DNA of 63,616 nucleotides, counting the filler, from Hausera hauseri (lineage: Eukaryota): assembly GCA_046269625.1 (NCBI GenBank). It is 12 parts of 12 records of this genome, joined end to end, with 100 filler letters (N's around TTAATTAATTAA, not from the genome) between each part and the next. Parts side by side here need not be neighbours in the genome. Positions count along the whole stretch, not along the records: positions 11,307 to 15,720 come from JBJURY010593223.1; 11 more parts are not named here. One strand, given 5' to 3'. Position numbers and translations under genes: made by a program. Position 1 is the stretch's first letter, and each line of letters starts with the position of its first letter. Positions 1 to 39,716 of the stretch are shown here, piece by piece. The notes beneath the pieces were generated by a model. It saw only the letters and a list, made by a program, of their open reading frames with translations. It had not been told where the DNA came from and searched no databases.

Positions 1-145
1 TGGGTTAGCTAGAAAAGCTGCAAGAAGGGTACCTAAAGAAATAAAATGGACTAAATTATTTGAAAAAGAGGAAAATGAAAAGGGAACTAATAGGATAGAG
101 GACATTATACGAAATATCTCCCCGAACAAAGGAAACGAATCCAAT

Positions 146-1900
146 TGGTTAATCAACTTGCTGACGATAACGATGCTAGTAAAGCAGATAGGAGCAGTCA
201 CTATATACGACTGTGACAAATTCAAGGTGGATCAGAAATATTCGTTGATGGATTTAGAAACATGTGAAGACGAGAGGCAGAAAAGAAATATATACTATAC
301 CAACAACGTGAATTAATCGCAATGGATGCGACAGAATGCATGATACGGAGATCCCGCAGCGTATTTCATTGTAGTAACATGTACGGGCATTCGTCAATAA
401 TTAAACCAACCACACCATTAATCCCAATGAACGTGGATAGACAACACTGTTTAGGAGCCCGGTTAACCGGTAAAGTAGTTTGGGACGGCATGGAATTAGA
501 AGCCCAAGAAGGAAAGATTATTAGAGCCTACAAAGTGGCAATAGGAAAATTAAACATGCACACCGGTTATTGTGTCGGAGCAGAATATGACACTGGAAAG
601 GGAAAGGAAGGAGGAATAGTAGTCGTGGATTTTTACGAAACTGAAAATCAAAAATGTCACATCCAAAATGGTGCTTGTACGTTCCGAAGTTCAGTCATTG
701 TATGGAACCCACCTTCCAAGAGAGATTGCAATTTCATCAAAATCAAAGAATTAAAGTTTAACGAGACAACCGAAAAACGTTATTCAAATAAATTACACCA
801 ATACCAGATCAAGGGAAGACGTAATAGAACATTCCACACCAACGACATTGATATCAGATGCGCATGGGTTAAAATTTATTAGAAAGGATATGCTAACACG
901 CTGCGATGTAGTTATGTATGCCACTAATTACAAAGCGTTCTTCGTAGAAGAAAACCGAAATTAACATGGAGACGTACGATTTGAAGACACAAGGTGTGCG
1001 GATCGAGGATTACCTGAAAAATCGAGACGAATATTTCTATTATAACGGAAAGACCGGAATAGCAGAGCTATACCACAAAATGATAACGAATGACTGCAGA
1101 TTAGACACTGAAGTCATGAGAACCAAACTAGCCTTAATTTATGCCAACCCAGAATTGGTATCATAAATTATACCGATGAAGGAAGATGTTTTTGGGCGAG
1201 TTACCGAAGAAGTCCTATTAACTTACGAATGCGAAAAAAGGAACGTACCGATCAACGTGGAAGAAAAGAGATGCATGCAAGAATTACCGGTCATCTATGA
1301 GAATATGCCGAGACTAGCGATGCCACTCACCAGGGTATTACTTGCAAACTCGACTGAACCAACTATACTGAAGGAATGCAAAACGAGCCTAGGTGAACCA
1401 ATGTTTCGACGTAGCGAAACCGACTGGATAAGTTTACTTAATGGAGGCGCAGCCGTAGCCCCTAGTAAACTAACTGGGACAAATCTAATCAAAGGATTAT
1501 CAGAAGATAAGTTTGAGAACACGGCCAATAAAGGAATTTATAGACCAAAAGACATAGAAGCTTTTAGACAATTCTTAGCATTTCCGCGACAAAGAACTTA
1601 TGAACTGAACAGGGCTATGTCGATGGTAATAGAAGACACAGGCTTTAAAGCAAAATGGAAATCGTTACTTGGCGCTAATCACTATCAAAGAGTAACTTCA
1701 GAAATATTGTATAAGATTTGAGGAAGGTTTCTGATTTTCGGATAAGCTGCATCCGTATTCCTAGCCATTTACTTTTTAGTACAGTTAATTAAAGCAGTAA
1801 TTCAAGCCGTCATAAATGAATATGAAATTTTCAGTTTTAACTGGATTTTCCTGCAAAATTTTGACTGCAATTATAACACCTTTTGGAAAAATACTTAAGG
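146..1900 (+). pseudogene. Chuvirus-like (class III/gB-type) envelope glycoprotein domain, copy 1
   Basis: Signal-like WLINLLTITMLVKQIGA|V (146-196), then YDC..YSLMDLETC..QQ..ECMIRRSRSVFHC..GHSSII, a Cys-rich ectodomain, C..ELPV and C-terminal KI(W)GRFLIFG.AAS.FLAIYFLVQLIKAVI TM. This is the motif pattern of chuvirus-type glycoproteins, recognised by eye. Confidence 0.8.
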
Positions 1901-2495
1901 CCTACGAGGAAAATCGGTGGAAAAATGACGTAGAACGCCACGTCGGGTATTATAATCGCAAACGACGAGAGAGGCCCTCGATTTCGTATAGACGTAAAAA
2001 TAAGAAAACAATAATGAGGAAGGATGATTCATATGATGATCAACGCACCATTGCCCATCATGCCACCAACTGCACCAATATGCGAAGACTGCGACCGGAA
2101 ATCAGTCATGTCATATAAGTCCGAAATCTACCGCAAGCCCATTGATTATGAAGACCCTTATGAGAAAACCAAACAATATGGAGTACTACAAAAAATGAAT
2201 GTCATTAACCAAGGCTTAACAGAAAACGACCACGGGATATTGCACTCGAAAAGGATACCTCGTAACATAGAGTCAAAATCCACGATCTGGGAGAACCCAA
2301 AACTGCGTTCGATCCCAGGTCCACTACCTCAAGAATCGCTCATTGTCAGTTGTGTCAACGAAATAACGAATAATAATTTATACCCAAACGAGGAATTAAG
2401 GCAATTAAGGGAAAACATCATTTCATCACCAGAAATAACGATAAATGGACACAGTCTCGACTATAAAATAGTCAAAGAAGGTAGTAGAAGGGAGG

Positions 2496-4521
2496 CCTTT
2501 CGCTAAAATATACATCGAAGACTGGGAAGTATACGCCTTAATCTACACGGGATCAGAAAAGTCGTTTATAAAATATGAACCTATACCAACCACATTGCGG
2601 AACCAGCTATGCCCACCATTATCATCAGACCCAGGTAGCGTAGGAGCGTTCGGACAAATATCGAAACCAAAATTTAAGTGGACCCCTACCATTTATATGA
2701 TGGGCCAAGCACTTCAACACGAATTTGCGATAATGGACTAGCTAACAGATGATGTAGTAGTGGGTTGTGACATTAAAACAGATACCAGGCATGGCAATTG
2801 ATGTGCATGACGGAAAGTTAATTGAGCTCGAACCAATTAAAGGGACAAAAATAAAAAAGGAAAGGAAATCGAGCGAAGTATGGATACCGGTAGACGAAGA
2901 CATTCCCCCAAGAAACGAAATGATAATTTTCGCACAGCTTCGTCAAGACGAAGATCTGCCAGTATATTTTGGACCTCAAGAGAATATTGATCCAAATCTC
3001 ATTTAGCAATATCCTATGTAGAGTAGAGACGGAACGCATACCTATCAGATTGGTGAACACTGCACCAATCCCCGCACGATTGCACGCTAATACTACTTTG
3101 GGTCACACCTGCAGAGTATCGGCAATAACAATAGAGGAAAAACCATATAAATACGCTGAATTTCCACCCCACGTTAAAACCAAATTTTCTCCTGAGGCGT
3201 ATTGCAAGTTCTACGAATTATTATGCAAATACAGTTCGATAATCGCACAAAATGAGGAAGACATAGGTAGAGCAAAAGCCCTGAGATTAACAATCCCATT
3301 AAGAAAGAAACCTGGCTCAAATGACGAAATCGATCTAGAACAGAAAATGCCCAAGTGGTACCCACCTCCTCATTCATTGAGACCAGAAATAACTAGAGGT
3401 AGAGCGGATGTTAAAGGCCGATATAATTCGACCAAGCTACCGATCATGTTACTCACCTCTACTTATGGTCAAAAAGAAAAAAAAGCGAACCAGTTCTAAG
3501 ATACCCTGATTTTAACCTACCATTCATCATCAAAACAGATGCGAGTAAAGAAGGTATAGGATATGAATTAGCTCAGAAACGAGAAGATGAAGAATTAGAA
3601 CATCCAATAGCCTATGGGGGACGCTCATTAAAGAAAGCAGAAAAGAATTATTCGGTTACTGAATTAGAAACGTTAGCCGTAAAGGAAGCACTACGACACT
3701 TTAATGTATATGTCTATGGACAAGATTATAATAGTGACCGATCACAAAGCAGTTACGACGTTGAAAGGACGAGCTAATAAACCAACATGTAGATTAAACC
3801 GTTGGAGAGGAAATCTCGCGATATAACATTGAATTCCAATACAAACCATGTATTAAACACGTCGACGCCGACGCATTATCGAAGTTAAAGACAAAAACCA
3901 GTGGGATTATCACAGGGAAGAAAACGCAACTCGAACAAATAATTGAACGTCAAAGAATCTTAACCTTGGATAAAACAATCAGAATCACCGCAGAACAAGC
4001 TAAAAATAAGGTTATTCAGCAAATTGTTGAATTTGCACAAAACGGCAAAATGTCCAAAGGACGACAATTGAAGAAGCATCTACAGAGACACGGACATAAA
4101 TATCGCGCATCGGACCAAGACAATATCCTATATTACGAACGAAATGGAAGACTAATAGTTATTCCAAAAGGATTACGCATCGAAGTATTCATGGCCGAAC
4201 ATGATTCATACTTAGCCGGACACATGTCTTGGAAAAAGACATTGGAGAGGATATTAAAAAAATACTATTGGCCAAGCATTTATATCGATGTAAAGAATTG
4301 GGTAGGTGCTTGCAAAGTTTGCGCGACAAAGTAAAAGAAAACGAAAGGCTGCGTAGCAGAATTAAAACCCATAAACGTGCCAGATAGGCCCATGCAAGCT
4401 ATGTCTATGGATATAGTGGGACCTTTACCTAAAACTCACAAAAGTAACAGATATATTCTAACATGCGTGGATCGGTTAACGCATTTCGTTGAACTGGTGG
4501 CACTATTAGATCAAAAGGCAG
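2496..4521 (+). pseudogene. pol: pol remnant: aspartic protease, RNase H, integrase; RT core deleted near 3485
   Basis: SPLLMVKKK (RT N-terminus) is joined directly to EPVLRYPDF (start of the RNase H linker), with no YxDD between them. Integrase is cut by the contig end. Confidence 0.88.
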
Positions 4522-7700: not shown

Positions 7701-8976
7701 TTGTAGTCTTTTTTTGACACTAATTAAGAGTCGGGGAGATTAAATCTTTTCAGCTAGAGCAATTTAAACTGATCATGTGAGTAGGGGCATGACCCTATAG
7801 CTTCAGAGGGTTAAAATGGATGTATAATAGATTGAGTTGATTGATATTTGAACTGTTATTTTTTTCCCTTTGTTCCATTTTAGAGTTCCTCCCTGGCAGC
7901 TATTGGGGGCCATGACACCAAACGTGTTACATGGAACATCCTGGCCCACATGTTCCATGATGACGTTGGGAAGCTGATTAATTGGAAAGGTGTCAATGGG
8001 AAGAAGTCTTTCAGCCAGATGGCATCAAAGACATTGGTACTGAGTAAGTATTTGTGATAAAAAAACAATTATATGGTCTTAGCAAGTATTTAAACAGACA
8101 TTATTGATATGTGTATAGAAAATTGTGGTTGTGATGGTAATGTGAACATTTGAATGAAAAGTGTTTTGTGATTCCAGATTCTGTAAGAAAGAACGCTGTC
8201 GCCCGTGCTGCAACTGAACACGATGTTTCCAAGCATGCAATCAGATGGTTCAACCTGGCAGCAGATAGGGGCAGCTCCAGAAGACGTACACAGGAAGTTC
8301 AACCTGCTGACCACAACACATCCTCCTAATATCACAGAACATTGTTTTTTTTTGTTAGTACATTTTTATGAAGTTTTTCTCTTTTGACTTTACATGTAAT
8401 TGTTGTTCTTTTTACTAAATCCATTTGATTTACATCACAGTTGTCATGTTTTTTGTATAATTGCCTTTTCCTTGACCACCTATAGTGGTGTTTGTCAATT
8501 TGGTGCATGTGCCAGAACTTTTAACTGAACTTAATTCCATCTTAATACACAACAGCAGCAGTACTAACTGCTTCACAGTGCAGCCTAAGAAACTAGTTTA
8601 CTGCTAATAATAACAACCCATTATTAGTAATTTTGCAGCATCACTACAAAAATATTTTTTGTGTTTAAAGTTAAACTGGAAGTTTTCTGATTTTTATATA
8701 GCAATCTGGTTGGGTTATGAACGGATCCGGATAGGGTCCGGGCCGGATGGTGTGGGTTATGAACGGGTCCGGATAGGGTCCGGGCCGGATGGTGTGCATT
8801 TTGACCGGATCCGGATAGGGTCCGGGCCAGATCTGATCTACATACGTTATCATCATCTGTTCCGGATCCGTTCCGCTGTGCAAGTGGACTCCGATTCGGG
8901 TCCATTTTACGGACTCATTCCAAAGCCTAAGGTACATCCAGATCGGATCCGGCCAGGAGTCTGTTTGCTATCTGGG
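4731..8976 (+). mobile_element. Non-autonomous CMC/EnSpm-like DNA transposon (teleost type) carrying a DUF4806-like spliced gene
   Basis: TIRs CCCAGACAGCA (4731-4741) and TGCTATCTGGG (8966-8976), 10/11 match, flanked by a 2-bp AA duplication. Subterminal GGATCCG-rich repeats. Internal exons such as WNILAHMFHDDVGKLINWKGVNGKKSF resemble the DUF4806/BEN-like accessory protein. No transposase seen. Confidence 0.72.
8712..8832. repeat. 42-bp subterminal tandem repeat, about 3 copies
   Basis: Unit GGGTTATGAACGG(A/G)TCCGGATAGGGTCCGGGCCGGATGGTGT starting at 8712, 8754 and about 8796. Confidence 0.9.
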
Positions 8977-11195: not shown

Positions 11196-11306
11196 TTTCT
11201 GATGAGNNNNNNNNNNNNNNNNNNNNNNNNNNNNNNNNNNNNNNNNNNNNTTAATTAATTAANNNNNNNNNNNNNNNNNNNNNNNNNNNNNNNNNNNNNN
11301 NNNNNN

Positions 11307-14236
11307 GTTTCTATTTCTTGTATGGAGATTTCCTTTAACGGCTTTTGTACTAGGTTCTGTATTCCTTCCCAACGGATGTTTACCAAACTTCGTTGAAGAT
11401 CACTTAACTTGTTTCTTTTTCTGTAGAAGTCTTTCTCTTCTATCATATTATATATGTCTGTCAATGTTGTTTGATCTTGTTCTCGGCTCATAAACTCAAG
11501 TTCTCGAAATGATTCGAATTTAATCCGCAGTTTCGCTTCCTCCTCCATCGTACTGATATCTAGTAACATTTCTTCCAATTGGTGGCGCATTATAGGCTCG
11601 GCTATTGCGAATTCTCTTAGTCTTTCGTTTATTACTCCTGCTATCGAAGGTAACAGATCTATCCACTTCCTTAACTGTTTAATTATTATTGGTTTCGCGT
11701 ATATTATTTCGTCTAATTCTACAGAGGCTTCCTTCAGTTTGTGGTCCGGTCCTCGTACGAACTCTATTATTTGTTTCATGTAGTTAAATTCTTCCTTATA
11801 TTCATCTAACTCGAGCAGGCAAGCGCGTATTATCCTCTGTACTTCTACATTTTCCGAGTGGACTACACCGATCCTGAGGTCACTAATTTTAGCTCGTACT
11901 GTGTTTTCTCTTTCTATACGTGTTTTTAAATCTGAGTCCTTCCGCGTATCGTTGTTTATTAAGCTACACATTTCCAATAGAAAGAAACTATCAGTTTGGT
12001 CTATACTCAGTATCTCTAAATCGATTTCGGTCAGTTCGTATACCGGCTTATTCCGGAGATAAGAAGTTATCGCTTCCTCCATTTCCTGCATCAATCCTTC
12101 TAAGTTACGTCTTACGCGTTTTAATTTTGGGTTTTTCTTAAGTGTATCTAACAATCTTTGTACTTGTTTAACTTGGTCGAGAAACGGTTCGTTTTTACTC
12201 CACCATATTTTCGTAAAATTGATATCATTCCTTGTCCACAGGTCCAATTTATTTTGCCAACTTTTTATCAAATCCTGCGACATTTCTTGCATTTCCTCTG
12301 GTATGCCTTCTTCTTCTTTCTGGATACCAGTTTTAAGCTCCTTATATAACTTTTCTATAAATTGTTGTTCTTTTCCTGAGATATCCAGCTGCTTGCTCAT
12401 TTGCTGGAATTTTTGCAACCTCTCGGGTAATCTTTCAGAATTGTCCAAAGTATCTCTTATTTCCGTTAGCTCATTCGCATTTCTCCAAGATTTTCTAATT
12501 TTCCAAATTCTAATGGATTTCTCTCCTTTTGGTTCTTCTTCACTAAGTGGTAACGGACATATTTCATTAATCTCTCCCATATTCGTAATACTTGTTGTTT
12601 CCGACATGCTTGGGGCTATTTCAGGAGTATCTAACTCTGTTTCATCTCTTAAAGTGATGGTGAAATCTTCCTCCTTGTTTATATCCTTTTTAATAGGGGA
12701 TCGTGAACGAGTTTTTGACCTTCTCCTAAGAGAAGGGCTTCTACCTCTATTTTTAGTTATCTTTAGTATTAATGGCCCAATAAATTCGCTCTCAACTTCG
12801 TCTGTTGTTTTGTCTTTGTTTGGAAGTACGGCTTCGGCATCCGCATCCAAGTCTATGTTTGAAGGCGTAGTCGGTTTTTCTTCCTTCTCTTCTTTTGTTG
12901 CTTGATTTAGATTTTTCTTCCTGGCCATGTTAGTATTCTTAGGCGCTATAGCCTTTTCGTATTCCGTTTTTGGTTCTCTTAATCCGTGATAAACTTCCAA
13001 TTGATGTAACTTCTCTTCATACTCCTGTCTGGCCTTGATTACTTGTGGATTATTAGATTCACCCATGTTCCTTACGTACCTTCGTAAGTCCTGCATCTCA
13101 ATAATCATACTTATATCACCTCGTTTTCCGTAGATTCCTTCCAGATTTTCTTTTATCATACTAGCTTTACTAGTCTCTGCAAATGACACACTCCGTGGAT
13201 TAGGGCACGATCTAGCTATATGTCCTTCCTTACCGCATGAATAACAAATCAAATTCCCGTCTCGACCGATTCTTTGTCGTCCATCTTCATTTACAGGTGA
13301 CTTAGGTCTACCTGTTGTTTTATTTTGAGCTTGTTTATCAATTCCATTATTTCGATTTTCGAAACTCCGATTTTCCGTATATCGATTTTTATTGTTTCGG
13401 TCATTATTTAGGTTTCTGTCCTGATTGTAACCTGTTTTGCCATAAGGGTTATAGATATTTCGATTATCATTCCTGTTGTCATATCTCGTATTGCGATTGA
13501 AGGCATTTTGAGCTCTATTCTCGTAGCCTCGATCCCTGTTATTGTCGTTAAATCTTCTATTACTTCGGTTTCTATCCCGATTGTCACGGTCATTATTTCG
13601 GTCATATCTATCATTCTGTTTGGCATATCTATCTAATGCCATTTCTAAATTCTGAGCTAGTTGCAGTGCCGTTTCAAAGTTATCTGGTCGAGCTAAAATT
13701 AGTTGCTTTACTAAATCTCTAGACCATATACCGTTTATTAATTGCGTTGTCATCATGACATCTAAATCTGGTGGGCTAGCCTTTTCTGCCGCTTCGCGTT
13801 CTGCATCTGTTTTTGCCTTTGCTGCATTAGCTATCCTTAACGTGCTCACGTAGCTATTAGCAAGTTTCTTAAGTGCGAATGCAAATTGAGTAACCGATTC
13901 ACCTTTCTGTTGCGTTCTATTTTGGAAAGCCATAAGCTTCTGTTGTGGCGTAACTGTCGGCAATAATTTACGATTCAGGGCTCCTACTACAGAGGACCAC
14001 GATTTCTTCTCGTCGTTAGTTAGTTCACTATACGCATCTGCAGCGAGGTTTTTCAAGTATAAAGATAGTCGCTTAATCATAACCTCTGGCGCAAGACTGG
14101 CACCTTCTGCATGCAATTTGTAAGTCCGTAAAAAGTCGTTTAATCCATTCGGATCTCCGTCGTATGCGGGTAAATTTAGCGAGTCAAACGTAAATATATC
14201 GAGTTTCTGAGCTACCGTAGGGTTATCTGTTGCCAT
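11307..14236 (-). CDS. gag: Very long Ty3/gypsy Gag-like polyprotein N-terminus (capsid, CCHC knuckle, more than 600 aa extension), open at the contig end
   Basis: Uninterrupted frame 14386 to 11307, first ATG at 14236. LPAYDGDP..LSLYLKNLAADAY..SWSSV..QQKGESVTQFAFALKKLA capsid/MHR. N/R/D-rich linker. CYSCGKEGHIARSC at 13205-13246. Then an RS-rich motif and predicted coiled coil with no protease motif. Confidence 0.88.
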
Positions 14237-14588
14237 TTTAGTTTTATTCGTTTTATCTATCTTAGATCTATGAAGAACCTTAAATTCTTTAACTGCGTTC
14301 AATTCGGTGTCGGACAGATAGTTTTTATCTATTATTTTGTCTTCGGTGTAAAACTTGTTACGAGTTTCTCTTTCACTACCGTTCACTAATACGTTTTGAT
14401 GAGAATTAACTCTGTCAATATTCGCTTTCAGCTTGATTTAATTTATTTCCCTCTAACAACTTATAAACCAAATTTTAATTTTTAATTCTTACAATATCGA
14501 TTACTTGATGTAATGGGCGCTATTCGCCGGTATGTCGTTACTTGGTTTCTCAATAGTAAAGTCTAACAAGGCACAAACTGTTCTGTTA

Positions 14589-14597
14589 GGGTCGCCA
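14589..14597 (-). promoter_or_regulatory. Primer-binding site TGGCGACCC
   Basis: Lies 4 nt after the LTR end ...TGTAACA and upstream of gag. Complementary to a tRNA 3' end ...GGGUCGCCA (tRNA-Arg-like; identity is inference). Confidence 0.65.
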
Positions 14598-14601
14598 AGT
14601 A

Positions 14602-15330
14602 TGTTACAGTTGGGGTGGCCCTAAACGTCTCCCACTATAACAACGTTATTGCTAATTTTATATTGCTTCTTGAGCAGGTTATGATTACCCGTTCTCGAGT
14701 AATCTGCTTGTGCCTTAATAATTTTAAAAGAATTTACTATGTGTTGCTGGTACTGCGTGTGAATAATGCTTGCTTAGGTTACAAAAATCTCGTCTTAACT
14801 ATACGATTTTAAGTAGTATTTTAACCTTAGGGTAGTACAAATCGTCCTTAAGGGACGATGGAAAACTATGAGAGTTTAGCAACAGTCAAATAAAAATCAC
14901 CTTTATTTGTCACACCAGTATTACAACGTATTCGGAAAAACAATTCACAGCAAATAATGTCAATAATAAACACGGATTCGATTTGAAGAAATGTTTCTCT
15001 CTGTCGTTAGGTATCTGGTTGTCCGACTCTAAGTCGTACACGATTCGTTCTAGTTCTTCTCATTTTGACTTCGGTTTATATATTACTACTTTTTCTAACC
15101 GCTGGTATTTATGAGCCATTTATTTCTATATCTGCTCCTTTTCTTCTCATAAATAAAATATGACACATTATTTTATTATTTAGAGTTTGTAGATCATTCG
15201 TAATAATTACCTTAATAAATAATACTCCAGTAATAATATTTACAATTGTGGAGTTTTCTCGCACTATTTTATTTCTTTGATAGCTGCTACATTTTCATCT
15301 GTTTCTCTTTGTGGACTCTCTTTTATTACA
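14602..15330 (-). repeat. LTR (729 bp, TGTAATA...TGTAACA)
   Basis: On the minus strand it is preceded directly by a polypurine tract and followed by the PBS. Contains TATATAAA (about 15075-15082) and a downstream AATAAA (14902-14907). Confidence 0.75.
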
Positions 15331-15720
15331 TTTCTCCTCCCTGAGCGGCATCCTCGGAGGAGCCCATTGCGTCAGAAGAGGTGGCGCCAAACGTTTCAGA
15401 TCGTCTTAGTCGATTCATCCTTTCATCCAAATCCGATAATGAGTCCTGACGTTCTTGACGGATTACGGGGTTTGTTTCTAGGTTGTAACTGTGATAAGGT
15501 TTAATTCGGACGATGCGGGTATAGCTTCCATTGGAATAATATTTTAACTCGGTGGCTTCTGCTCTGAATACTGGACAGGTCGTTTTTCCATTGTCGAGCG
15601 TCCACTTCTCCAGACAGTCTAGACAGTATTTATGACGACAGTTTTTATTGTCCAAAACCGTATATCCTTGTTTCAAATTTGCCTCACGCACGGGACATTC
15701 ACTATCTTCTTTGTTCCAAT
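15326..15720 (-). CDS. RING-HC (C3HC4)-like ORF at the 3' end of an LTR element (partial; two ligands mutated)
   Basis: Frame open from the contig edge: ECPVR...CRHKYCLDCLEKW...TTCPVFR. Second and eighth Cys appear as R and F. Its stop codon TAA falls inside the LTR start (ATG TAA). Confidence 0.72.
15331..15342 (-). promoter_or_regulatory. Polypurine tract AGGGAGGAGAAA
   Basis: Abuts the TGTAA LTR start on the minus strand. Confidence 0.75.
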
Positions 15721-16324
15721 NNNNNNNNNNNNNNNNNNNNNNNNNNNNNNNNNNNNNNNNNNNNTTAATTAATTAANNNNNNNNNNNNNNNNNNNNNNNN
15801 NNNNNNNNNNNNNNNNNNNNTAATCCGAAATAAGATCAATTAAATTTAAAAAGGTAAATTAATATGACAATTGAGTACAAAAAGAAAAACAAATAGTACC
15901 CATTTATTTTGTGAGCGATGATCAAGATGTTCGCAGAAGCTCGATTATTAATGGCTCCTCCAACAGAACCAATTCACGCAAAATGTCAAGCACAAACGAG
16001 ACAGGGTAAACTTTATTTTATGCAAACAGTGATAAACTTATGCAAAACAAAATTATTGTGTGAATTTTTATATCATGAGCATGAAAAAATAAAAATTAAT
16101 CATGCACAAAGGGAATTTAATTATCTTTAGCAACGTAATCATACGGAAGCAGCAAATCTATAAATTCTACTCAGCAGTTGAAACAACATCATAATCTTTA
16201 TACAATTCTCTAAAACAATGGAAAATTAAAAAGACCTAATGCCTACATTGTTTAAATGGTATGTTGATTAAATTTCACCAATAACATTATGGAGTATTAG
16301 AAGAAAATCTATTTTCGTCATGAC

Positions 16325-19300
16325 TGTTGTGGAGGAGTTAATTTCCCGAAATTTATTTTGTAGAGCATTAAATCATTAAATCGCCCATTCGAGTTAAATT
16401 GGAGGAGTCGCAAAGGCGAGAAACAAATGAAATTTCATGGATCCACTAAGCAAGGCTAAGAGGTGTCAATATCAGTCGTACCTATCGAACTTTCCGCCGT
16501 TCCTCCCGTCTTACAATCGTTCATTGTCACAAATTGCCCGAATACACTACATAGTCCAAGTCCTTTAAGCCTGCTGCTTCAATATTTCACAATATTTTTA
16601 CGAGTTCACACGCTCCAGTTGCATAACCCCATCGTGAACTCCAACCAGAATGCCGCAACATGGTCGAAGCTGAACTTTTGCGGCTTGAACAAGAGGATAC
16701 AATCTGACAGCCTATCTCTCTCTGGGCTTCAGCATTTCACGTAGTACCAAAAAGATGGCACGTTTCGGCTTTTGCGGAGATTATTGTAGGCTTAACGTCT
16801 TAACTACACAAGACAGTTATCCTCTCCATATGATGTTTGACATTATCCGGAAATTAAATGGTAGCAACATATTTTGCACCGCGAACTTGCACAAAGCTTA
16901 TTATCAGATTCCAGTCGCTGTGGAAGATATTCAGAAAACCGCGATAACAACGCCATTTGGTCTCTTCTAGTATCTCTACATGCCCTTTGGATTACGCAAT
17001 GCTGCCCAAACATTCCAGCGGCATATAAACTCTGTGGTTGCAGATTTTGCTTTTGAATTCCCGTATATCGACGACATACTGATAGCTTCCGGAGGCGAAG
17101 ATCAACGCACGGAAAACAAACGACCATAATCTCCAAGTGAATTGGAGTAAATCTCATTTCTTCTCGCAGTCTGTCACATTCTTGGGATATGTCATTTAAG
17201 CACAAGAGCACGCACCACTTCCTGAGCGATTACATTCATTTCGCAACATTGCTTGTCCATCGACCGTGATAGAACTGCGCAGCTTCCTAGGAATGGTAAC
17301 TTTTGCCACAAGTACATTCCTAACTGTTCACATTTCACCGCGAATCTCTCTGCCCTAGCTTCTGGCCGAAAACAACATAACATTCAAAAGACGGATTCCT
17401 CAACGAGTGATTTTAACACTCTAAAGTCACAACTACAGGATCTTAGAATCACCCATACAAAAAAGGACACACCAATGTATGTATCCATTGACGCATCTAA
17501 AATAGCTGCAGGTGCAGTTGTACATCAGATGAACAACGAAATTCAAAAGCCATTAGAATTCTGGAGCTATAAGTTCTCTAAAACCGAAACGCGTTACTCG
17601 ACTCTTGATAGAGAGTTGATTCCAATTTTTCTAGCCATCAAACATTTTCAACACTTGCTGATTGGCCGTTCTTTCACAATCCAAACAGGCCATAAGCCAT
17701 TGACATATATGTTTCAAATGCGTAACCCTTCTCCACGCCAAAAGGGCAGATTTCCCTTATCTCTCAATTTACTTTTAATATTCTACATATCCCAGGCGAT
17801 AAAACCTTATGGCCAATCTCTGTGTCGTCAATCGATTTCCATTGGCACTTCTCCAAAATCCATTGTCTCCATCCGACATTTCACATTTTAAGAATACGGA
17901 AAACATAGAAGGTATTTTCTTTGATACTACACTGTCGGGAACTATATGGTCATATGTTTTACGCGAGCAAGTCTTTGATCACATCCAAAATCTTCACCAT
18001 CACGGTAGTTCTTCTTCGCACCAAAATAATCTGGCCGGCCATGCGTAGAGACGTAAAACACTGGGTTTCTCATTGCTCTGAATGCCAAAATCCCAAACTT
18101 AGCAACATATTAAGCCGCCGTTATATCATTTCTTAACAACGTCGCGTTTCGACACTGTCTATATTGACCTCGTTGGCTGTCGGCCACCTAACTGAGGATT
18201 CACTTATTTTCTCACCATGCTTGACATATCAGCAAGATGGCCAGATGTCATATCACTCCCTAATATCGAAGCAGATACCGCAGCTAATGCCTTCATCCTC
18301 ACATAAGTCAGCTGTTTCGGAACACCAAAATATACTTCCGATCAAAGAAGCCAATTTGAATTTACACTATTTAAAGCGCTAGGCACTCGTTTGGGGATTG
18401 AACACATCCACACGTCGTCATATCATCTTCAGGCCAACGGAGCTTTAGAACGGTTTCACAATACCTTTAAAGCTTCGTTAAAGATTCTCGCAGACAATAA
18501 CCATAAGTGACTTGACATAATCCCATACGTTTTACTTCGTTGGAAAAATACATCAAGTTCATAGATCAGTCACACTCCAGCTCGGGTTCTATTCGGTACT
18601 TTACTTTGTCTTGACAAGGTTGAAACACCAAATAACACAACGGAGCGTGACATAGAGGCAGCAAGACAACTTTTAGAATCACTGGACAAAGATAAATTTT
18701 TCCTTACAACAAACAATCGTAAAGAATTCATAACACTGAATCTGTTCACAGTGAAACTTGTTTTTCTAAAAAGCCGAACAAAGAGGGGTTTACAGCCAAC
18801 GTATACTGGACCATATAGAGTTTTAGAATGGCAGTGACATACCGTCAAAATACTGAAAGTAATGAAANNNNNNNNNNAAATAACTTTGGTTCAATTAACT
18901 AATATAAAACCAGCCTTCATAATACATGACGAACCCGAAACTATAGAGCAGCCAATCAACGAGCTCTCATTCCACAAACGTTTGTTAAATTTAAACATAC
19001 CATCCCCATCAGGCATAAACACCCGCGAAATTATCAATCAGTATAGTCATAAGCAAAACTTACCGGCGACCCACACAATTTTCATTCCAACATCCTTTTT
19101 CTCTTCTTCGCCTTTAAATACACCTTATGTTTTAGGCTTCACATCATTCACATCCTTCGCCACAGTCGTTGACGAAATGTCCACAAACCCACTAATTGTC
19201 CACGTGGATACATTGGAACAATTTTCACAACTTACACATGACAGTCACCAACCATACCACTTCTTCTCATCCAACAGACTTAACTTGCGACTGGCAGAAA

Positions 19301-19680
19301 ACTTCTCGCTCACCCTACTTTTTACTTTCTTCTTTGAATAATGCGCATGCGTAACATCAACACATGACACAATTCCAGTCCCGTATCCCTGTTCGAGCAC
19401 AGTCTTCCACTACACGAAACAACTCAGAATATGCACGCAGACACTACATCTGAGAAAATCATTAAAACTTCTTACAAAAAGTATTATCCAATGTACAACA
19501 CAATTTGTAAATATCGCTTAAAATCAATGCCTTTTGGGCGTTTTTTCGGCGGGGGCTGTGTTGCGGTAGCGTACATTTTCCGAAATTTATTTTGTACAAC
19601 ATTAAATTATTAAATTGCATATTCGAATTAAATTAGAGGAGTCGCAAAGGCGAGAAAAAATGAAATTTTACGGATCGACA
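16325..19680 (+). mobile_element. Decayed Ty3/gypsy element (gag deleted) with two LTR remnants
   Basis: RT (KAYYQIPVA..KTAITTPFGLF, YIDDILIA), RNase H (DASKIAAGAV..YSTLDREL) and INT (HIDLVG, QANGALERFH). Diverged direct repeats at 16325-16443 and 19559-19676, the second preceded by GGCGGGGGC. Confidence 0.88.
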
Positions 19681-21779
19681 AACTCGATGTTTAAAAATAT
19701 TAAAATGTAACGTTTGGAAAGTACAACAATTTGTTTTAAAAAACGATTGTAATCCTTTTTAACGGAATCTTCTAGAAACATGTTTTTTTTAAATGTCTCA
19801 AGACTTATCTCACCGCTTGAATTCAACACATCAATCAAGTGAAATTGAAGCAGTCAAAGAGAATTATTATTTCAAAAGCAAGAATTCAGCAATTTCGCCA
19901 GAACAATCGCACGAACTATCCGTAATGTATGCACATAAAATGTAAAATATTCTTCCAAAATCACAATTTTATTTCCGAAAATGATCAAGTTTACACCCTA
20001 AAACATGTCTTCTTGGGCACCTCTTTATAGACTTTACTCAGCAATGCAGTGATGATGAACGAAATAAAATAAATATATTTCATCCTAAATACATCTATAA
20101 ACAAACACAATAACATAGTACTAGTATTCATGAATTTTCGTNNNNNNNNNNNNNNNNNNNNNNNNNNNNNNNNNNNNNNNNNNNNTTAATTAATTAANNN
20201 NNNNNNNNNNNNNNNNNNNNNNNNNNNNNNNNNNNNNNNNNACCCACATTTCACTACGATTGCTTGAATAAGAGCAGAGCAGTTTGCCGTTTCTTCCCAT
20301 TGGCAATAAGTCGTCGATAACAATCTGAAGGCAATTTTCCAATTAACATTTTCCTTTTTAACAAAAAATAAATGGATTGTCAGTTGAATTTTCGACAAAT
20401 TGAGAGTTTGGACAATTAGTATTGACTAGCAACGATTGCTTCAACGATATTCAGTGGAATGAATTAATTTTTCTTATCATAATTTGTATAATTAACTGAC
20501 AAATTAAGGACGTTTTAATTGAGAAAAAAATCAAACGAAATTCCGATTTGAACGAAACACGGAAATTTTCAAAATCAAGTAACATGCAGACGTATGGGAT
20601 CTCGGAGTAATTTTATATTTTCACCATATAAATAAATTAATAAAAATTCCACTAATATATCACACGAAATAATTAAATATGATCCCATTGATAATTATCT
20701 CAAAATTTTACGTTCTTGAATTACCACCTATATTCTTCACGACGACATACGCATGAGAACGGAAACATTGAAATACAGTAGAATGGGTGTATTAGCAATT
20801 CGTCGAACTGCAACGTTCGGATTCATTTGCCCTCGTCATGGGTCGTTCGAAAGAAAGTGTGGAGGGTGATAAAATAATAAATATGACCAAGTTTTACTAT
20901 CCTAAGAAAATGATAAACAACGGATTTAAACAAAAACAAATATTAACGAATGAAATTTAAATAATTAATAGAGAAAAAATTAAGGAATTACATATACCAA
21001 GATGTGCGGAATCGAATTTCCGGTCGAATCACACCACTTCTGATTCAATTGGCGTAACTTTCGATTGAATTTTGCGTATTTCCGGTTCATTTTTCGCAAT
21101 TGTGAGCACAAGACACGTGACTTTAGGTTATTTTAGTGGTGAAAATTGTGCGGTCAATCATGTGCTCACATGACCATTTTAAAAATATCGAAAATCTGCT
21201 AAGGACACTGAGAAATAGACCTTAAAGGAAAATGTTTTTTGGGAATTTCACCGAAACCAAGAAACATTGCATTTTTTTCTTCACCGTCGACAAAAGTGTG
21301 TCAGCGCGGTTCTAACGGTATATAGCAAGATTGGATAACTTTACGCACGGGTCGACAAAAGGGTATGCCGGTTCTGACTCTGTTACGGTTTTTAAATGAA
21401 ATTTGCCGGATGTGCGATATCTCAGCTCCCCAGAGTCCGACGGAGTTGATTGAGGTGTCGTTCGATGCATGCCAATGAGACTAGTTGAATGAATCTAATA
21501 TGAACGCGCATGAAAAGTGCTGGAGACCGAAAATGATCATTTAAGCTTCACTTGTGGCAGTTTATTGTTGTCGACGTTTAACAACCAATTCTAGGCTCAG
21601 ACTTTCTTCAAGCCTTTGACTTGCTCCTTTGCTAAAGCAGAATGCTGTTGCTTCGCAAAACTTATGATAGGCTGACAACTAATTTAAAATATTCTGTTAA
21701 CACAAGCCTTAAATCAGCCGAAAGCAATAAAATGGGAAACATGTTTCATGGCAAATGCCCTTAGTGGAACAAACGAACG

Positions 21780-24205
21780 AAGAAGGCAAAAAAGTATCAT
21801 CATCAGTCATACCTACCGTACTTTCCACCGGCCCTTCTGCCTTACAATCTTTTATCCCCACAAAATGCGCGAATACACTCCAAAAGTCCAAAACCTTTGA
21901 GCCTACAGCTTCAACATTCCAGAACATCCGTACGAGTTCACACGCTCCAGTAGTACAACGCCGTCGCGAACTCCAACCAGAACGTCGCAACATGGTCGAA
22001 GATGAATTCTTGCAATTCGAACGAGAAGGCACAAGCTGACGTTCTACCTCCGCTTGGGCTTCACCACTTCATATGGTACCAAAAATACGGCACACTTCGG
22101 CCGTGCGGAGATTATCGTTGACTTAACGCTGTAACTACACCAGACAGTTACCTCCTTCGCATGATCTCTTACATTTTCCGTATATTAGATGGTAGCAACT
22201 TATTTTCCACCGTGGACCTGTTGAAAGCTTACTATCAAATTCAAGTCGCTCCGGAAGATATTCGGAAGACCGCTATAAAAACGCCATTTGGCCTCTTCGA
22301 ATATTTCTACATGCCGTTTGGACTGCGCAACGCTGCCCTAATATTCCAGCGTCATATAGACTCTGCTACTAAATCTGCCTTTCGCATTCCCACATATCGA
22401 CGACACACTGATAGCTTCCGGAGACGAAGACCAACACAGGGAACACATGTGCACTCTTTATAAGCGCCTCCACGACCACAATCTCCAAGCAAATTGGAGT
22501 AAATCTCGTTTCTGTGCTCACTCCATCACATTCTCAGGACATGTCATTTCAGCGCAAGGACACTCCATTGCTTGAGTAATTACATTCAATTTGCAACATT
22601 GCTTGTCCATCGACCGTGACAAAACTGCGCAGCTTCCTAGGAATGGTTATCTTTTTCCACAAGTACATTCCTAACTATTGACATTTTACCGCAAATCTTT
22701 CTGCCCTAGCTTCTGGCTTAAATCGACATAAAATTCAGTGGACGGATTTCTTAACGACTGATTTTAACCCACTGAAGTCACAACTCAGAATCTTAGAATT
22801 CTCGCATGCCCAAAAAGGGTGCACCATTGTACTTGTCAACAGACGCATCTACAATAGCGGCAGGCGCAGTTCTACATCAACTGAACAACGAAACACTTGA
22901 GCCACTAGAATTCTGGAGCTAAGTTCTTTAAAACCGAAACGCGTTGCTCGACTTTTGATAGAAAGACACTTTCAATTTTTCTCACCATCAAACATTTTCA
23001 GCACATGCTGATAGGAAATTCTTTCACAATCCAAACCCACCATAGGCAATTGGTATATATTCTACAAATGCGTAACCCTTTCCCGCACCAAAAGAATCAA
23101 ACTTCGTTTATCTCCAAATTCAATTTTAATATTCTGCATACGTCAGGTCAAAAAATGTTGTAGGCGATTTTATGTCACATTATGTGTCGTCAATCGATTT
23201 TCTCCCGGTAATCTCTCAGGAAATTCTTCGTCAAAATCCGCCGTCCTCATCCGATATCGCACATTTCAAGAATATTGATACCACACTGTCGGGAACTTTA
23301 CGGCCTATATTGTCAGAAGCTTTATGAAAACAGTCCTTTGATCACATCAATAATCTTCACCATCCCGGTAGTTCAAACACTACCGTCTTCTTCACACCAA
23401 AATAATCTGGTCAGCCATGTGTCGAGACGTAAAACACTGGGTTTCTCATTGTATCCCATGCCAAAAATTCAAAACTTCATGGCACATTAAACCACCGTTA
23501 TATCATTTCCCAACGACGTCACGTTTCGACACTGTCCATATCGATCTCGTCGGTCCCCTGCCACGTAACCGAGGATTCACTTACTTACCATGCTTGACAG
23601 ATCAACAAGATGGCCAGAAGTCATACCACTTTATAATATCGAAACTGATACCATAGCTAAAGCTTTCATCCTCACATGGATCAGCCGCTTCGGAACACCA
23701 AAACATCTTATCTTCGATCAAGGAAGTCAATTTGAATCCTCCCTTTTCAAAGCGCTAGCCATTCGTTTAGGGATCGAACACATCCACACCTCGCCATATT
23801 ATTCCCAAGTCAACGGAGCCTTGGAACGATTTCACCACACCTTCAAAGCTTTATTAAAGATTCTCGCAGACAATAACGATCAGTTGTTAGACGTAATGCC
23901 ATACGTTTTACTCGGAGAAATACGCCAGGTTCATCGACTAATCACACCCCAACCCAAGCTTTATTCGGAACGTCACTCCGACTGCTTTCAGACCTGGTGG
24001 AAATGACAAGCGTTACGACGAAGCACGAAATAGAAGCAGCGAGAAACCATTTTGAATCATTGAACGAAGATAAATTTTGCCGTACAACAAACAATCATAA
24101 AGAATTTGTACTACAGCACCTGTTCACATCGAAATTCGTTTTTCTAAATAATCAAACAAAAACGGGTTTACAACCAACTTACACGGGGCCATATAAAGTT
24201 TCCTG
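21780..24205 (+). mobile_element. Decayed Ty3/gypsy pol, same family as 16325-19680
   Basis: Colinear with 16465-18825: STVDLLKAYYQI..TPFGLFEYFYMPFGLRNAA, HIDLVGPLP, DQGSQFES, NGALERFHHT, LQPTYTGPYKV. Confidence 0.9.
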
Positions 24206-25451
24206 ATGAAAGCCTCATTGTTGGTGTGTATGTTTCTTTGCATGTTAAATTTTTTGAATGTTACTTGGTCCCTATGACAAACGGTGGGCGTGTCTCCCCG
24301 GAGAGGGACATCCCGAAAATAATGGTCATACATGATGTCAAGATGAGCATAAATGTTTTTTCGTTATGTAAATATTTTAATTTTGTTGAATATTCGATCG
24401 AAGGAAATTGCCGGTTACAGAATGATAATTTCATAGAAAAATTAGGAACGATCAATGGAAAACTATTCGATGTACATATATAGTATGGTGGTTAGTATCA
24501 ATGCATTTTTATCTCGTAGTCGTTGTATGAATATTTTCAATCACATTTAACATCAGAATCAAGTTCATTTTTCGTAATGTAAGAGTTGACTAATACTATC
24601 AATACAAAGATTTGGAGATGTTGATGATCAAGCTGCGTGCGTCATGGTTATATGTCGTTCCATAAATTCAAGTTTTTTTCGCATTCTCTGAAACAAAAAC
24701 TCCGGTGATAAACCAATTTCTCCAATGTTAAAAGGAGAATTTAGCTCACTCCAATTGTTTCTAACTTTTTAGTAATAATTAAATAACGACGAATAAAACA
24801 TTAATTAAAAATAATAATAAATTACCGATATATCTTAAATTAAAAGTTTTGTCAGATTAAGTCGTACTGAAATAAAACGTGAAAGAAACTAGTGAGCATG
24901 TTGTTTTATAACATATTAAATGAACAATAGATTTAATTTGATTCTATGACAGTGTTTGATATTCGAAACCACTTATACCTGGTATCAATAGACGTAGTTC
25001 AGTGAGACGCCTCGAATCATAGTCAAAATAGGTCGTTTTGGTGAATTTGAGAATTTTGAGTCTACTCATAAATTGATTTACATGTTTTTAATTAAACAAC
25101 TAACATTTTCTACATGTACATACTATGCTCCATTCATAGCATATAATCTGGACTGGATATCCATTTCGATTACTCCATTTATGTGTATATGTAAAATTTT
25201 CTTTGATTACTCATTCCTGAACAACTATTGACATAGATTCGGATACGTTGAAGCATGGCCTGTTGTTTGCACCATAACTCGACTCTGTACGATGTGTGGT
25301 TGTGTGTCTATGCTTCTTAACATACTAGATAACTCAATTTCTCATTTCTCANNNNNNNNNNNNNNNNNNNNNNNNNNNNNNNNNNNNNNNNNNNNTTAAT
25401 TAATTAANNNNNNNNNNNNNNNNNNNNNNNNNNNNNNNNNNNNNNNNNNNN

Positions 25452-28400
25452 GTCAATTGTTCCATGATTGCAAATTCGTATCGAAATGTTTGCCCAACTA
25501 ATTGGACTTCTGGGTTCCATTTAAACATTGGTTTTAACATTTGGCCAACAGCTCCTGTACTACCTGGATCCTTCGTAGACGGCGGGTATAACTGTCCTCT
25601 TAGCGTTTGAGGTATTGAATCATTTTTATGTAAGATATCTCGGAACCCGTATCGACTAACGCATAAACTTCCCAATTCTCGATAATGATTTTGACGAAGG
25701 GTCTTCCTTCTACCACGGTTCCAAAACAGTTTGATGCTACTTTCGAACGTTTAGTCACTGATATTTTGTGTTCGTTTATTTGCACTTCTGGGGCGGATAC
25801 TGTTTTTCGATAACTGTCTCAACTCTTCGTTTGGATATAATTCGTTGTTTTCTACGTGCAATTCTTCCATTTCATGAGTGCTAATTAGCTGCTCCCGATT
25901 GTTAGTATGCAGTTCAGTGTGTTGGAAGGTTTTTAGTCTTGCGTTGTCCCAAACCGTCGATCTGGTTTCTATATTTTTAGGTTCTGTTGGTGGATACAAT
26001 ATTTTGGGATCATCCGCAGACTGTTGATAACACATTTTCCGTAAAATTCCGTATCGTTTCGTTCCTTCTTAAGGATCCTCTAGATTAATTGTTCTTTTGT
26101 AGATTTCCGTTTGGTATGAACTCATGGATCGTCTGTCACAATCTTCATAGAATAGAGCGGTATGAGGTAACATGGGCAATGGGTACTTAACGATAGAGTA
26201 CATCTTATGTCTATTTATTCCTGAAAGTACTTCTCCTCATTTAGGCTCATCATTATCTGAATTATTTCTTTTTGTAATAGATTTTGTAAATTTTCGCTTT
26301 CGTAAGAATATAGGCCTTTTCCTTCGTTTACGATTATGATATCCGACATGACGTTCTAAGTCCGATTTCCACCTACTCTCTTCGTATGCCTTTAAGAATT
26401 TCCCAAAGGGCGTTATGACTGCAGTCAGTATTCTGCATAAAAATCCGGTTAGTGTAAATATTTCGTATTTGTTTATTACTGCTTAGATGACTGCCTTAAC
26501 CATTTGTATCAGAAAATATATCGCTAAAAATCCTGACGCGGCTTGTCCAAAAATTAAAAATCTTCCCCAAATTTTGTAGAGTATTTCTGTTGTTACTCTC
26601 TAATAGTTGTTCACTCCAAGTAATGATTCCCATTTAGCCTGATATCGTGTATCATCTACTACAAACGCCATAGCTCGGTTTAGCTTATGTGTTCATTGTC
26701 GTGGGAAAGCGAGAAATTGTCGGAAGGCCACAATTTCCTTCGGCCTGTATATACCTTTAGACGAGATGTCTTGAAATTTATCGTCTGTAATCCATTTCGC
26801 GAGATTCGTTCCTATCAACTTGTTGGGAGCGGCGGTAATATCTCCATTAGATAAACTAACCCAGTCTGTTTCACTACGCCTGAACATTGGCTCTCCTAAA
26901 CTTGCTTTACAATCCTTAAGAATGGTCGGTTGTGTCGCATTATCCAACAACACTCTCGTCAATGGTGTAGCTAATCTTGGAGTATTCTGATAAATAACAG
27001 GAAGTTCCTGGATACAACGTTTCTCTTCTACGTTAATGGGAATTTCTCTTTTTTCACATTCATAGGTTAGTAATACTTCGCCCGTAACTCGACCGAAAAT
27101 TCCTTCTCTCATGGGAATTATTGGAGAAGCTAATTCCGGGTTTGCATATATACGAGCCATTTTAGTTCTCATGATTTCTGTATCCAATTTGCAGTCATTC
27201 ATTATCATTTTGTGATATAATTCCGTTATTCCGACTTGCCCTTTGTAGTAAAAGTAATAGTCTCGATTCTTCAGGTTATCTTCAATGCGGACATCCTGTG
27301 TTTCCAGCTTATAGGTTTTCGCACTTATTTTCGTTTCTGCGGCAAAAAACGCCTCATCGTTCGTAGCAAACATCACTACATCACAGCGAGACATCATCTC
27401 TTTTTTAATAAATTTCAATCCATGCTGATCCGAAATTAATATAGTAGGTGTAGAGTGTTCTGATACATCCTTGCGTGTCCTCGAGTTAGTTTTTGATTTG
27501 TCCACATATCGTTTTCCTGTAGTCTCATTGAACTTTAGTTCTTTAATTTTAATAAAATTACAATTTCTACCAGAGGAAGGTTCCCTAATTATAACCGAGC
27601 TTCTTAAAGCACAGGTTCCGTCTTTTAAATGGCATTTCTGATTCTCAGTATATAACTTAGTGACACTGTGGAAGATTACCACTTGTGATCGCATTTCTGA
27701 TTCGTAGAAATCCACAACCACCACGTTTGATTCCAATCCTTTTCCGGTATAGTATTCTGCTCAATTACAATGTCCGCTATGCATATCTAATCTTCCGGTT
27801 ACTACTTTGTATGCCCTGATTATCTTTCCTGGCTGAATCTCCAATTGCACACTGTCCCATTGTATTCCCCCAGTTTCCTTGGCTTGCTTGCAGTGTTGAC
27901 GTTCTAAGTTCATTGGAATTAATGGAGTTGTTGGTTTAATTATAGATGAGCGTCCATGAACCAACCCACAGTGAAAAATACTACGCGATCGTCTCAGCAT
28001 ACATTCCATTCCATCTAGCGATGTCAATTCTTGCTGCTGATATAGGAAATAATTTTTCTTTTGTCTCCAACTTGTGTGGTCTGGCATCTTCGCATACTTC
28101 TAGATCCATAAAAGAATATCTCTGTCCTAGCTTAAACTTATCGCAATCGTAGACAGTTACAGCGCCTATATGCTTAGTTATCATCATCAAGGTGAGTAAG
28201 CTAATTAGCCAATTCGATTTGTTCTTCCGGCATCCAACTTCCGCCGTTGTTAAATTACGTAACACGTCGTCGAGTTTATTGCTGTTTCGTTTGTCTTCTT
28301 CTTTATCAAATAGTATGGACCAATTTACTTCGCAGGGCAATCTTTTTGCAGCTTTTCGTGCTATGCTTATAGCTCTATTGATTTCGCTCTCTCGATTAGG

Positions 28401-29300
28401 GTTTTGCTTGATAGCTAAGAATAATAGCACTTTTCTCAGTACTTCATTGATGTTTTCTACCATGATTTTATCAATTACTGCTTCACCATTTAAGGTACTT
28501 TTTGACCGCTTCAAACTTGAGCTTCTCATCCTTTTTGGCTGCATCGAAAATTATCTTTTCTTTATCGTCTAATACATCACCTCGTAGGCTTGAATAATTT
28601 ACAATTCGTATTAGATTCTTCATTAAATCGTTTAATTCTTCATTATTTGTGCTAAAAGTCGGGATAGACATTTGTCTCAATTCTCTAATCAATTCTCCGT
28701 TGTAGTGTGCCTCTTCTCGCGTTTTCTTAGGCCTTCCTACTGGACGTTTCGGCTTTTGGCCTCTGGCGGTTATTTCACTCAGTGGTACTAAATTTATATC
28801 ATATTGTTCCTTATCTTCATCCGTTTGTAAGTACTCAAAATACATTGCAGCATCTCAAACTCCCATAATTTGTCCTACGCATTGTTCCGTTTTAGCCTTA
28901 CATGTGGCTTTTTCTTTTGTCTGTTCGTTAGCTATTATTGCTAATATCCGGTTTGTTTCGTGGGAAATAATCCCGACATCTATTAGCTGTTCTAGGTCCT
29001 TCCACCATTGTTTAACAACCATTCTCTTACATCTTTTACATAGGAATATGTAGTTAATTCACATTCTTTTTCATCCATCCACTCGGATGATACCATTACT
29101 TTCATCGCTACCTCAGGTGTAGTCCTTAAACTTTTAGCGTATTTCCTTATCAAAAGTTTCGGCACCGTGCTATAAATTGTGTTCTCACTAGATAATTTAG
29201 TTAAGGTTGGAATAAGCTGTCTTAATTTATTTTCAGTAATATTTTCGTTAATTAGTTCAATCAAATCTTTATCAGTTAGCGCTGAATCTAGGAGCATCTC
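25452..29300 (-). mobile_element. Env-bearing Ty3/gypsy element, copy 2 (AT-hook region, glycoprotein, linker, protease)
   Basis: Colinear with 1-2750. KRPVGRPKK at 28723-28749, signal WLISLLTLMMITKHIGA from 28211, 347-aa open glycoprotein stretch 26693-27736, TM at about 26480-26570, ALVDTGSE with DTGS at 25642-25653. Confidence 0.88.
26390..28211 (-). pseudogene. Chuvirus-like envelope glycoprotein domain, copy 2 (best preserved)
   Basis: AVTVYDCDK..YSFMDLEVC..ECMLRRSRSIFHCGLVHGRSSII..C..RCIQELPV..KIWGRFLIFGQAASGFLAIYFLIQMVKAVI.AVINKYEIFTLTGFLCRILTAVI. Few lesions. Confidence 0.8.
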
Positions 29301-29571
29301 TGTGGTGCCGCGGATATAGGCATCACCACAATCCTTGGAAATTTATTCGTCACTCGTTCAATCAATAGTTTTGCCCTTCGTTAAACCACCGTCTTCTGCA
29401 AACGTCAGCACACTTCAGTTTACACCGGGAGTACAAAAGACTTCACGAAATAAAAGCCTAATCACGAATTAAATTGTATTTCCTGCCGAAATTACCCCCA
29501 GTTCATACGATTTCAAGAATCCAACAAATTGAAAATACCAACTATCAACTAACGACATACAGACCCGTACA
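29301..29571 (+). repeat. Candidate LTR of an unrelated element inserted into copy 2
   Basis: Homology to copy 3 stops here. Segment starts TGTGG, contains AATAAA near 29449 and ends GTACA at the contig edge. Confidence 0.35.
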
Positions 29572-29672
29572 ANNNNNNNNNNNNNNNNNNNNNNNNNNNN
29601 NNNNNNNNNNNNNNNNTTAATTAATTAANNNNNNNNNNNNNNNNNNNNNNNNNNNNNNNNNNNNNNNNNNNN

Positions 29673-37545: not shown

Positions 37546-37549
37546 CATT

Positions 37550-39199: not shown

Positions 39200-39716
39200 A
39201 TTCGAGATACAAATGATATTAGGAAAACGTTTAATAAACGATTCTGCAATTAGTTGAATAAATCACTTGAATAATTTTCACTAAATATTTGAAAAACTTC
39301 TGACACCAATTTATTATTTATCTGGTCGATGAATATCCGAATGTATCTATGATATAAATTCCAAAAAGTAGATTTGAAAACTGAAAGAACAAAATAATTG
39401 ATAAAATTCCAATTTCGAACACGATAAAACTAATCGGTAATATAAAGAAATTTCCAACTTTAAGATGGCTAATAAATTCAAAACTCAGTGTAAAGATTTA
39501 TTTCTTTTCTTATCAATAAAACAAATGTTATTTATATATACATATATAGCACAAAATCAAACATCAGATAAAATGTACTAAAGGTAATATTCAAGTAACT
39601 AGAAGTAGAGATTAAATACAAGTTTTCAATAGGTCTTACAAAAAAATCGATTGGTGAAATTATACAAAAGCACATTTCCAGATTCACGCATACATACATG
39701 CATACACACAAACAAA

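Follow-up and report, generated by a model that had tools for sequence, protein, structure and literature searches.

A putative Ty3/gypsy-type LTR junction in the Hausera hauseri assembly with a 3' accessory ORF that probably couples a degenerate nuclease-like domain to a RING finger

A 4.4 kb contig of the Hausera hauseri assembly (contig c3, positions 11307-15720 of the window, by which we mean the whole 63,616-nucleotide stretch of DNA analysed) is best explained as the LTR junction of a Ty3/gypsy-type family whose members have a long additional ORF placed after pol and before the 3' LTR. We consider it probable (roughly 0.6, a figure that excludes the identity of any target) that this 3' accessory ORF encodes a pseudo-nuclease joined to a RING finger and has an E3-type role. 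Only the RING-containing end of the ORF lies on the contig; the layout of its closest relative, an 870-residue protein referred to here as P0001, is a degenerate DEDDh-like (DnaQ/RNase T-like) domain, then a linker of low complexity, then a C3HC4 RING at the C-terminus. A 3' ORF of this kind is apparently undescribed in the open-access literature, DEDD-type ORF3s and ubiquitin-related domains in gypsy elements being already known.

Results

A probable LTR junction on contig c3

The window consists of 12 short contigs of 4-10 kb each with N44-spacer-N44 linkers between them, such that the DNA is discontinuous, and retroelement fragments make up the majority of the 12. The element described here spans the whole of contig c3 and both contig ends fall inside it. 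Its minus strand reads, in order, a RING ORF (130 codons), a polypurine tract (PPT), a 729-bp segment, 4 nt, a primer binding site (PBS), a 352-nt leader and ORF1 (Table 1), and the series of RING ORF, PPT, LTR, PBS and gag reported in a first-pass annotation of this DNA is thus found complete. The hallmarks of an LTR retrotransposon present at this site are TG..CA ends with a PPT before and a PBS after them, followed downstream of the PBS by a gag with a capsid domain and a CCHC knuckle. Within the LTR-like segment a TATA-like box at 15082 and an AATAAA at 14907 suggest a U3-R-U5 layout. A comparison by eye with the tRNA table in the PMC13524379 supplement (30 of 32 places listed) gives a 9/9 nt match of the PBS to the 3' end of Arg-CCG and a 10/12 match to that of Arg-ACG. 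No tRNA genes were found, and contig c3 gave no Rfam match. The PPT-TG...CA-PBS configuration, a pattern defined after it had been seen, has one occurrence in the whole window, and none of 2000 shuffled versions of contig c3 contains it.

Table 1. Positions of the features discussed in the text, counted along the window.
Feature	Start..end	Strand	Description
PBS	14589..14597	-	tRNA-Arg type; 4-nt spacer from LTR-like segment
LTR-like segment	14602..15330	-	single; 729 bp, TGT..ACA
PPT	15331..15342	-	12 purines; abuts TG; in frame, forms last codons of RING ORF
Accessory ORF, 3' end	15326..15718	-	130 codons + stop; homologous to P0001 residues 744-869
RING-HC domain (C3HC4-type)	15566..15697	-	ligand positions 2 and 8 not Cys; core 30/44 identical to P0001
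Conserved extension after RING	15464..15565	-	15/34 identical to P0001
ORF1 from first Met	11309..14236	-	open to contig end
Charged ORF1 region	11309..12562	-	~420 aa; no family match
Broken accessory ORF (contig c12)	62306..63285	-	degenerate DEDDh-like; homologous to P0001 242-348 and 394-421
Artificial spacer	15721..15820	.	N44 + 12-mer with stops in all frames + N44; non-biological; cuts RING ORF on 5' side
Artificial spacer	11207..11306	.	cuts ORF1 short

There is no second copy of 14602-15330 within the window, and no target site duplication (TSD) is present. A single LTR between a 3' end and a 5' end is by itself an ordinary layout, and collapsed LTRs are a frequent assembly artefact. 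Because the contig is unplaced and has both ends internal to the element, an assembly join is no less probable than a real tandem: we lean slightly towards an assembler join through identical LTRs, regard a real tandem sharing the LTR as a serious possibility at somewhat below even odds, and consider a one-LTR circle very improbable. Recombination between LTRs can indeed generate tandems that share an LTR (PMC5932611).

Starting at 14437, the gag frame stays open for 1043 codons, as far as the contig end. No other contig has a frame as long as the 976 stop-free codons that run from the Met at 14236; the next longest has 557. The N-terminal part of ORF1 comprises a capsid-like gag, an Asn/Arg-rich linker and a CCHC motif at 13246-13199, for which the knuckle match lies above the cut-off (E 1e-6) and the Retrotrans_gag match below it (E 0.014). 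No protease motif, TM segment or credible Pfam match was found in the ~630 aa after the CCHC; there, an Arg/Ser-rich basic stretch precedes the charged region, for which a single-sequence model of low confidence (pLDDT 42) predicts helices. The 1043 codons present contain no detected env or TM segment, and show no match to MATH, BIR, ankyrin or BCL2-like domains. A word-index search with gag residues 60-430 matched 0 of 5191 candidates of comparable length, and a scan of prokaryotic genomes found gag in 0 of 101 stretches. Because the gag is without detected relatives and pol is not on the contig, the whole of the assignment to Ty3/gypsy is made from gag, the PBS and the PPT.

A degenerate RING with one intact relative

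The Pfam zf-C3HC4 profile, proposed earlier as a check, matches the RING ORF at 23.8 bits against a cut-off of 21 bits. Six of the eight zinc ligands in c3 are Cys or His, with Arg at position 2 and Phe at position 8, in agreement with the earlier observation that two are mutated; the full eight-ligand C3HC4 spacing is lost and the RING is degenerate. The two substituted codons lie 33 and 153 bp from the contig edge. In the cross-brace arrangement we take these two positions to belong one to each zinc site, and the c3 copy is probably non-functional. The conserved extension that follows the RING may form a beta-hairpin.

Scanned in full with HMMER, 1,835,955,588 representative proteins gave 23 hits to the RING ORF, of which P0001 is the only one at E<=1e-10 (E 2e-26), the remaining 22 being generic RINGs with E values of 6e-9 or weaker; a word-index search among proteins of near length matched 0 of 1 candidate. 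Two RING-bearing sequences underlie our reading, the c3 ORF and P0001. P0001 is an open frame of 870 aa encoded on one 16,242-bp contig, and its C-terminal RING is a complete C3HC4 with all eight ligands, providing an intact C3HC4 outside c3, of the sort that the first-pass annotation had advised looking for in other copies. Two further points emerge from P0001. The RING is there no small stand-alone ORF but the C-terminal domain of a much longer one, and a fusion to integrase, which the first-pass annotation had advised checking, is not seen in this single full-length relative, whose Pfam matches are to RING families with none to integrase (rve) or RT.

The alignment of P0001 with residues 5-130 of the RING ORF (62/130 identical) continues past the RING to the C-terminus. 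Identity is high in the RING core (30/44) and low in the 36 residues that precede the last 10 (3/36), and rises again in those last 10 (8/10), the tail being aligned ungapped. In c3 it is the PPT together with the first bases of the LTR that codes for these conserved last residues; the P0001 stop falls one residue later. Because conservation of the PPT peptide reads most simply as a constraint on the PPT at the DNA level, P0001 would also be the last ORF of an LTR element, and from this peptide we think it very likely that P0001 is itself LTR-encoded. The same shared PPT/LTR-edge peptide upholds the proposal that RING and gag are parts of a single LTR-element family, and supports the RING being element-borne, not flanking host DNA.

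Among proteins of similar length, a word-index search with P0001 recovered only itself from 7295 candidates, making it a singleton. The match to a PHRF1-like protein (P0003) is confined to the RING core and we assign no donor gene, and a similarity to P0001 at 54546-54334 of the window (E 0.026) was taken as chance. The whole of P0001 gave no usable hit in the Atlas feature search, and a fold search with its single-sequence model (pLDDT 31) returned noise (TM <= 0.1).

The RING of P0001 carries, on inspection, a loop-1 hydrophobic residue, a helix Trp, a Pro and a following Arg, which are features of E2-binding RING E3s, and these interface residues make it likely that it binds an E2-ubiquitin conjugate. 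Consistent with this, P0001 aligns with the RINGs of RLIM and listerin (solved-structure matches, best 60 of 87).

A probable DEDDh-like domain shared with contig c12

P0001 residues ~245-415 match DnaQ (E 1e-4), PolC exonuclease (E 5e-4), the NCBIfam dnaQ/polC models (E 0.004-0.01) and RNase_T (E 0.013), each weakly and below curated cut-offs, yet concordantly. In Atlas, 21 of 30 feature hits fall in the RNase_T set (top score 0.92), and an arenavirus nucleoprotein cluster comes next. The ExoI Asp, the ExoII Asp and the apparent ExoIII positions (register placed by eye) are replaced, so that the acidic catalytic residues are mostly lost and the four acidic residues plus His of a DEDDh exonuclease are not retained. 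As judged from these substitutions the domain is a probable pseudo-nuclease.

A broken ORF on contig c12 is homologous to this region (23/107 identical to P0001, pairwise E 4e-9), and the DEDDh-like domain thus recurs in the assembly. A second c12 piece scores above 300/300 shuffles; the score of a possible upstream piece is reached by 8/300, and one further comparison is without signal (282/300 shuffles reach its score). The c12 ORF is shorter than P0001 and no RING was found after it. Near 62267, beyond its end, a TGT-starting AT-rich stretch with no clear purine tract may be the start of an LTR. The RING is broken in c3 and absent from c12, and because of this we regard it as dispensable.

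The broken RING lies on the same contig as the long open ORF1. If the two are modelled as one neutrally decaying copy, the two ligand losses and a stop-free ORF1 are expected together with a probability of ~1.2%, or 0.3% with indels, in a post hoc calculation with a flat prior and equal rates. Because this figure is low, the RING and ORF1 halves may be of different age, the RING may already have been released in the lineage, or there may be errors at the contig edge.

Other contigs of the window

Three decayed gypsy-like copies with 67-75% nucleotide identity lie at 1-4521 (+), 25452-29572 (-) and 54777-59515 (-). They have a gB/Monjiviricetes-type env upstream of protease and fit GAG-ENV-POL errantiviruses; the copy on c1 extends to RNase H and integrase, seemingly without the RT core. 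Kinship between ORF1 and these env-bearing contigs was sought and not found (best E 1.2). Further decayed gypsy elements, with a DUF7041-type gag and a CHCC-like motif, are found at 15821-25351 (+), 34720-37012 (-) and 45900-50050 (-), and presumably resemble the CsRn1 clade. By the distribution given in PMC13524379, the env-before-pol elements suggest that the host is a flatworm, nematode or bryozoan, and together with the CsRn1-like gag motifs they would favour a flatworm. A region at 54130-53120 (-) and its neighbours contains an rve-type integrase with small adjoining ORFs, which we take to resemble a Polinton/Maverick remnant.

The contig at 4622-11206 is CpG-depleted (o/e 0.48) and includes three tandem 42-bp units (8711-8836), and ~43371-43727 is a dynein-heavy-chain-like exon. 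To us this contig and the exon look vertebrate, possibly fish, which suggests that host and parasite DNA are mixed in one assembly. A sulfatase fragment at 45006-44191 (-) includes, at a contig edge, a GC-rich part of bacterial appearance and is a possible contaminant or chimera. Intronless degenerate tubulin, calcipressin and RRM-like pieces adjoin a gypsy gag at 36952-39983 (-) and are probably processed pseudogenes. An intact intronless MFS/sugar transporter ORF of 557 codons lies at 32557-30884 (-), and a 43-bp perfect-spaced inverted repeat without a loop at 41624-41709.

Discussion

Extra ORFs are known in gypsy elements, DEDD exonucleases included, as in Juno and Vesta of bdelloid rotifers, whose ORF3 is of DEDDy type (PMC5408684). 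Those elements, too, are gypsy-like LTR elements in which pol is followed by an additional ORF, one that derives from an enzyme of the DnaQ-like superfamily. However, the Juno/Vesta ORF3 is RNase D-like with its catalytic residues kept, and RING has 0 occurrences in the accessible text of PMC5408684, whereas P0001 matches DnaQ/PolC/RNase T-like domains, is degenerate at the catalytic residues and ends in a RING.

The giant planarian gypsy elements Burro/GYPSM1 contain MATH, Ubl and BIR accessory domains tied to ubiquitination, for which meddling with the host has been proposed, and because of Burro there is precedent for ubiquitin-related accessory domains in gypsy elements (PMC6431247). The c3 element also resembles Burro in having a very long ORF1 in which gag is followed by extra sequence before protease; Burro ORF1, of ~4,900 aa, includes MATH, BIR, ankyrin and BCL2-like domains. 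The extra domains of Burro lie in or upstream of ORF1, and the available text of PMC6431247 mentions no 3' DEDDh-RING ORF; the label 'AIR1 RING Zn-finger' used there probably refers to gag CCHC knuckles. A long region between gag and protease is also described for the GAG-ENV-POL errantiviruses of flatworms, nematodes and bryozoans (PMC13524379). These share a long stretch after gag with the c3 element, which has no sequence link to the env contigs of the window and whose own env and pol would lie past the contig end.

We found no description in the open-access literature of a 3' ORF joining a pseudo-DEDDh domain to a C3HC4 RING; subscription journals, Repbase reports or the sequence data of PMC13524379 could hold one. 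The main text of PMC13524379 makes no mention of an exonuclease, and RING, DEDD and exonuclease gave 0 matches in seven of its supplement files, although the same search missed two element names present there. For 8 of the 9 flatworm elements in that paper, no LTR is called within 3 kb. A RING report is likewise absent from the accessible parts of PMC6338049, PMC9289625, PMC4408406, PMC10799480, PMC3248453 and PMC7998251.

How might such a protein act? The extra ORF runs through the PPT and stops at the LTR edge; the RING of its product would recruit an E2, and the dead nuclease would provide RNA or partner recognition. The dead nuclease might grip the element's RNA or a host RNA-surveillance factor, the RING would then ubiquitinate that factor, and this could ease silencing or RNA decay of the element. 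We hold this grip and its consequence only tentatively, as the less likely outcome, and the anti-silencing role of the RING ORF is one that we infer. Viral RING E3s such as herpes ICP0 and baculovirus IE2/PE38 are well known, and RING-HC domains redirect ubiquitination; in PML-type proteins a RING and a domain derived from DEDDh occur together, and PML restricts retrotransposons instead of travelling on one. These are analogies only, as neither the viral RING E3s nor PML are among the best 60 of the 87 solved-structure matches of P0001.

The strongest competing explanation, which we nevertheless consider unlikely, is that the accessory ORF serves the RNA cycle of the element (export, packaging or 3'-end protection), the pseudo-nuclease binding genomic RNA and the RING being a dimerisation or scaffold module. 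CERV offers a parallel from the gypsy element Cer1 of C. elegans: this accessory protein has a pseudo-enzyme domain, and export of genomic RNA depends on it (PMC10309623). The rotifer DEDD ORF3s have been proposed to act in 3'-end handling (PMC5408684), and it is the DEDDh part, not the RING, that P0001 and c12 have in common. However, the characteristic residues of RINGs that bind an E2 are retained in P0001, which aligns with the RINGs of RLIM and listerin (within the best 60 of 87 matches). CERV, unlike P0001, is spliced from the gag region, has a G-protein-like fold and no RING, and exonuclease and DEDD have 0 occurrences in the accessible text of PMC10309623.

It is more doubtful that the RING is a recently captured passenger, functionless for the element and decaying, so that the element would depend at most on the stretch of the ORF upstream of it. 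The loss of 2/8 ligands in c3 and of the whole RING in c12 would fit, and a lineage-wide loss of constraint is one way out of the neutral-decay figure of ~1% (0.3% with indels); against this, the contrast between the RING core (30/44) and the tail (3/36) indicates past purifying selection across a deep split, and none of the eight ligands is missing from P0001, whose 870-codon frame is open. That the 390 bp upstream of the LTR are merely an insertion site, with an ordinary element in a host RING gene of which P0001 is a relative, is highly improbable: a second LTR, a TSD and pol are indeed all absent from the window, but the element would need to have hit the final two codons of the gene, at a point immediately following 12 purines (~1e-3 for each by rough estimate), the purine-tract peptide would need to have stayed conserved in P0001 despite drift in the 36 residues before it, and no P0001 orthologues appear among the 7295 candidates.

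An E3-type role for the pseudo-nuclease-RING ORF remains our preferred reading, with good support for the architecture, ligase activity likely and any target speculative. In its most far-reaching and distinctly speculative form, an invertebrate (probably flatworm) gypsy/errantivirus-like lineage would encode its own E3, in which the dead DEDDh domain recognises RNA or mimics a piRNA or RNA-decay factor and the RING sends host silencing proteins to degradation, the module being gained and lost. If true, such a lineage would extend counter-defence of the ICP0 or Vif type to retrotransposons; and should the intact P0001 prove to have ligase activity, a retrotransposon would be carrying its own ubiquitin-based means of countering host control, in a form open to direct test.
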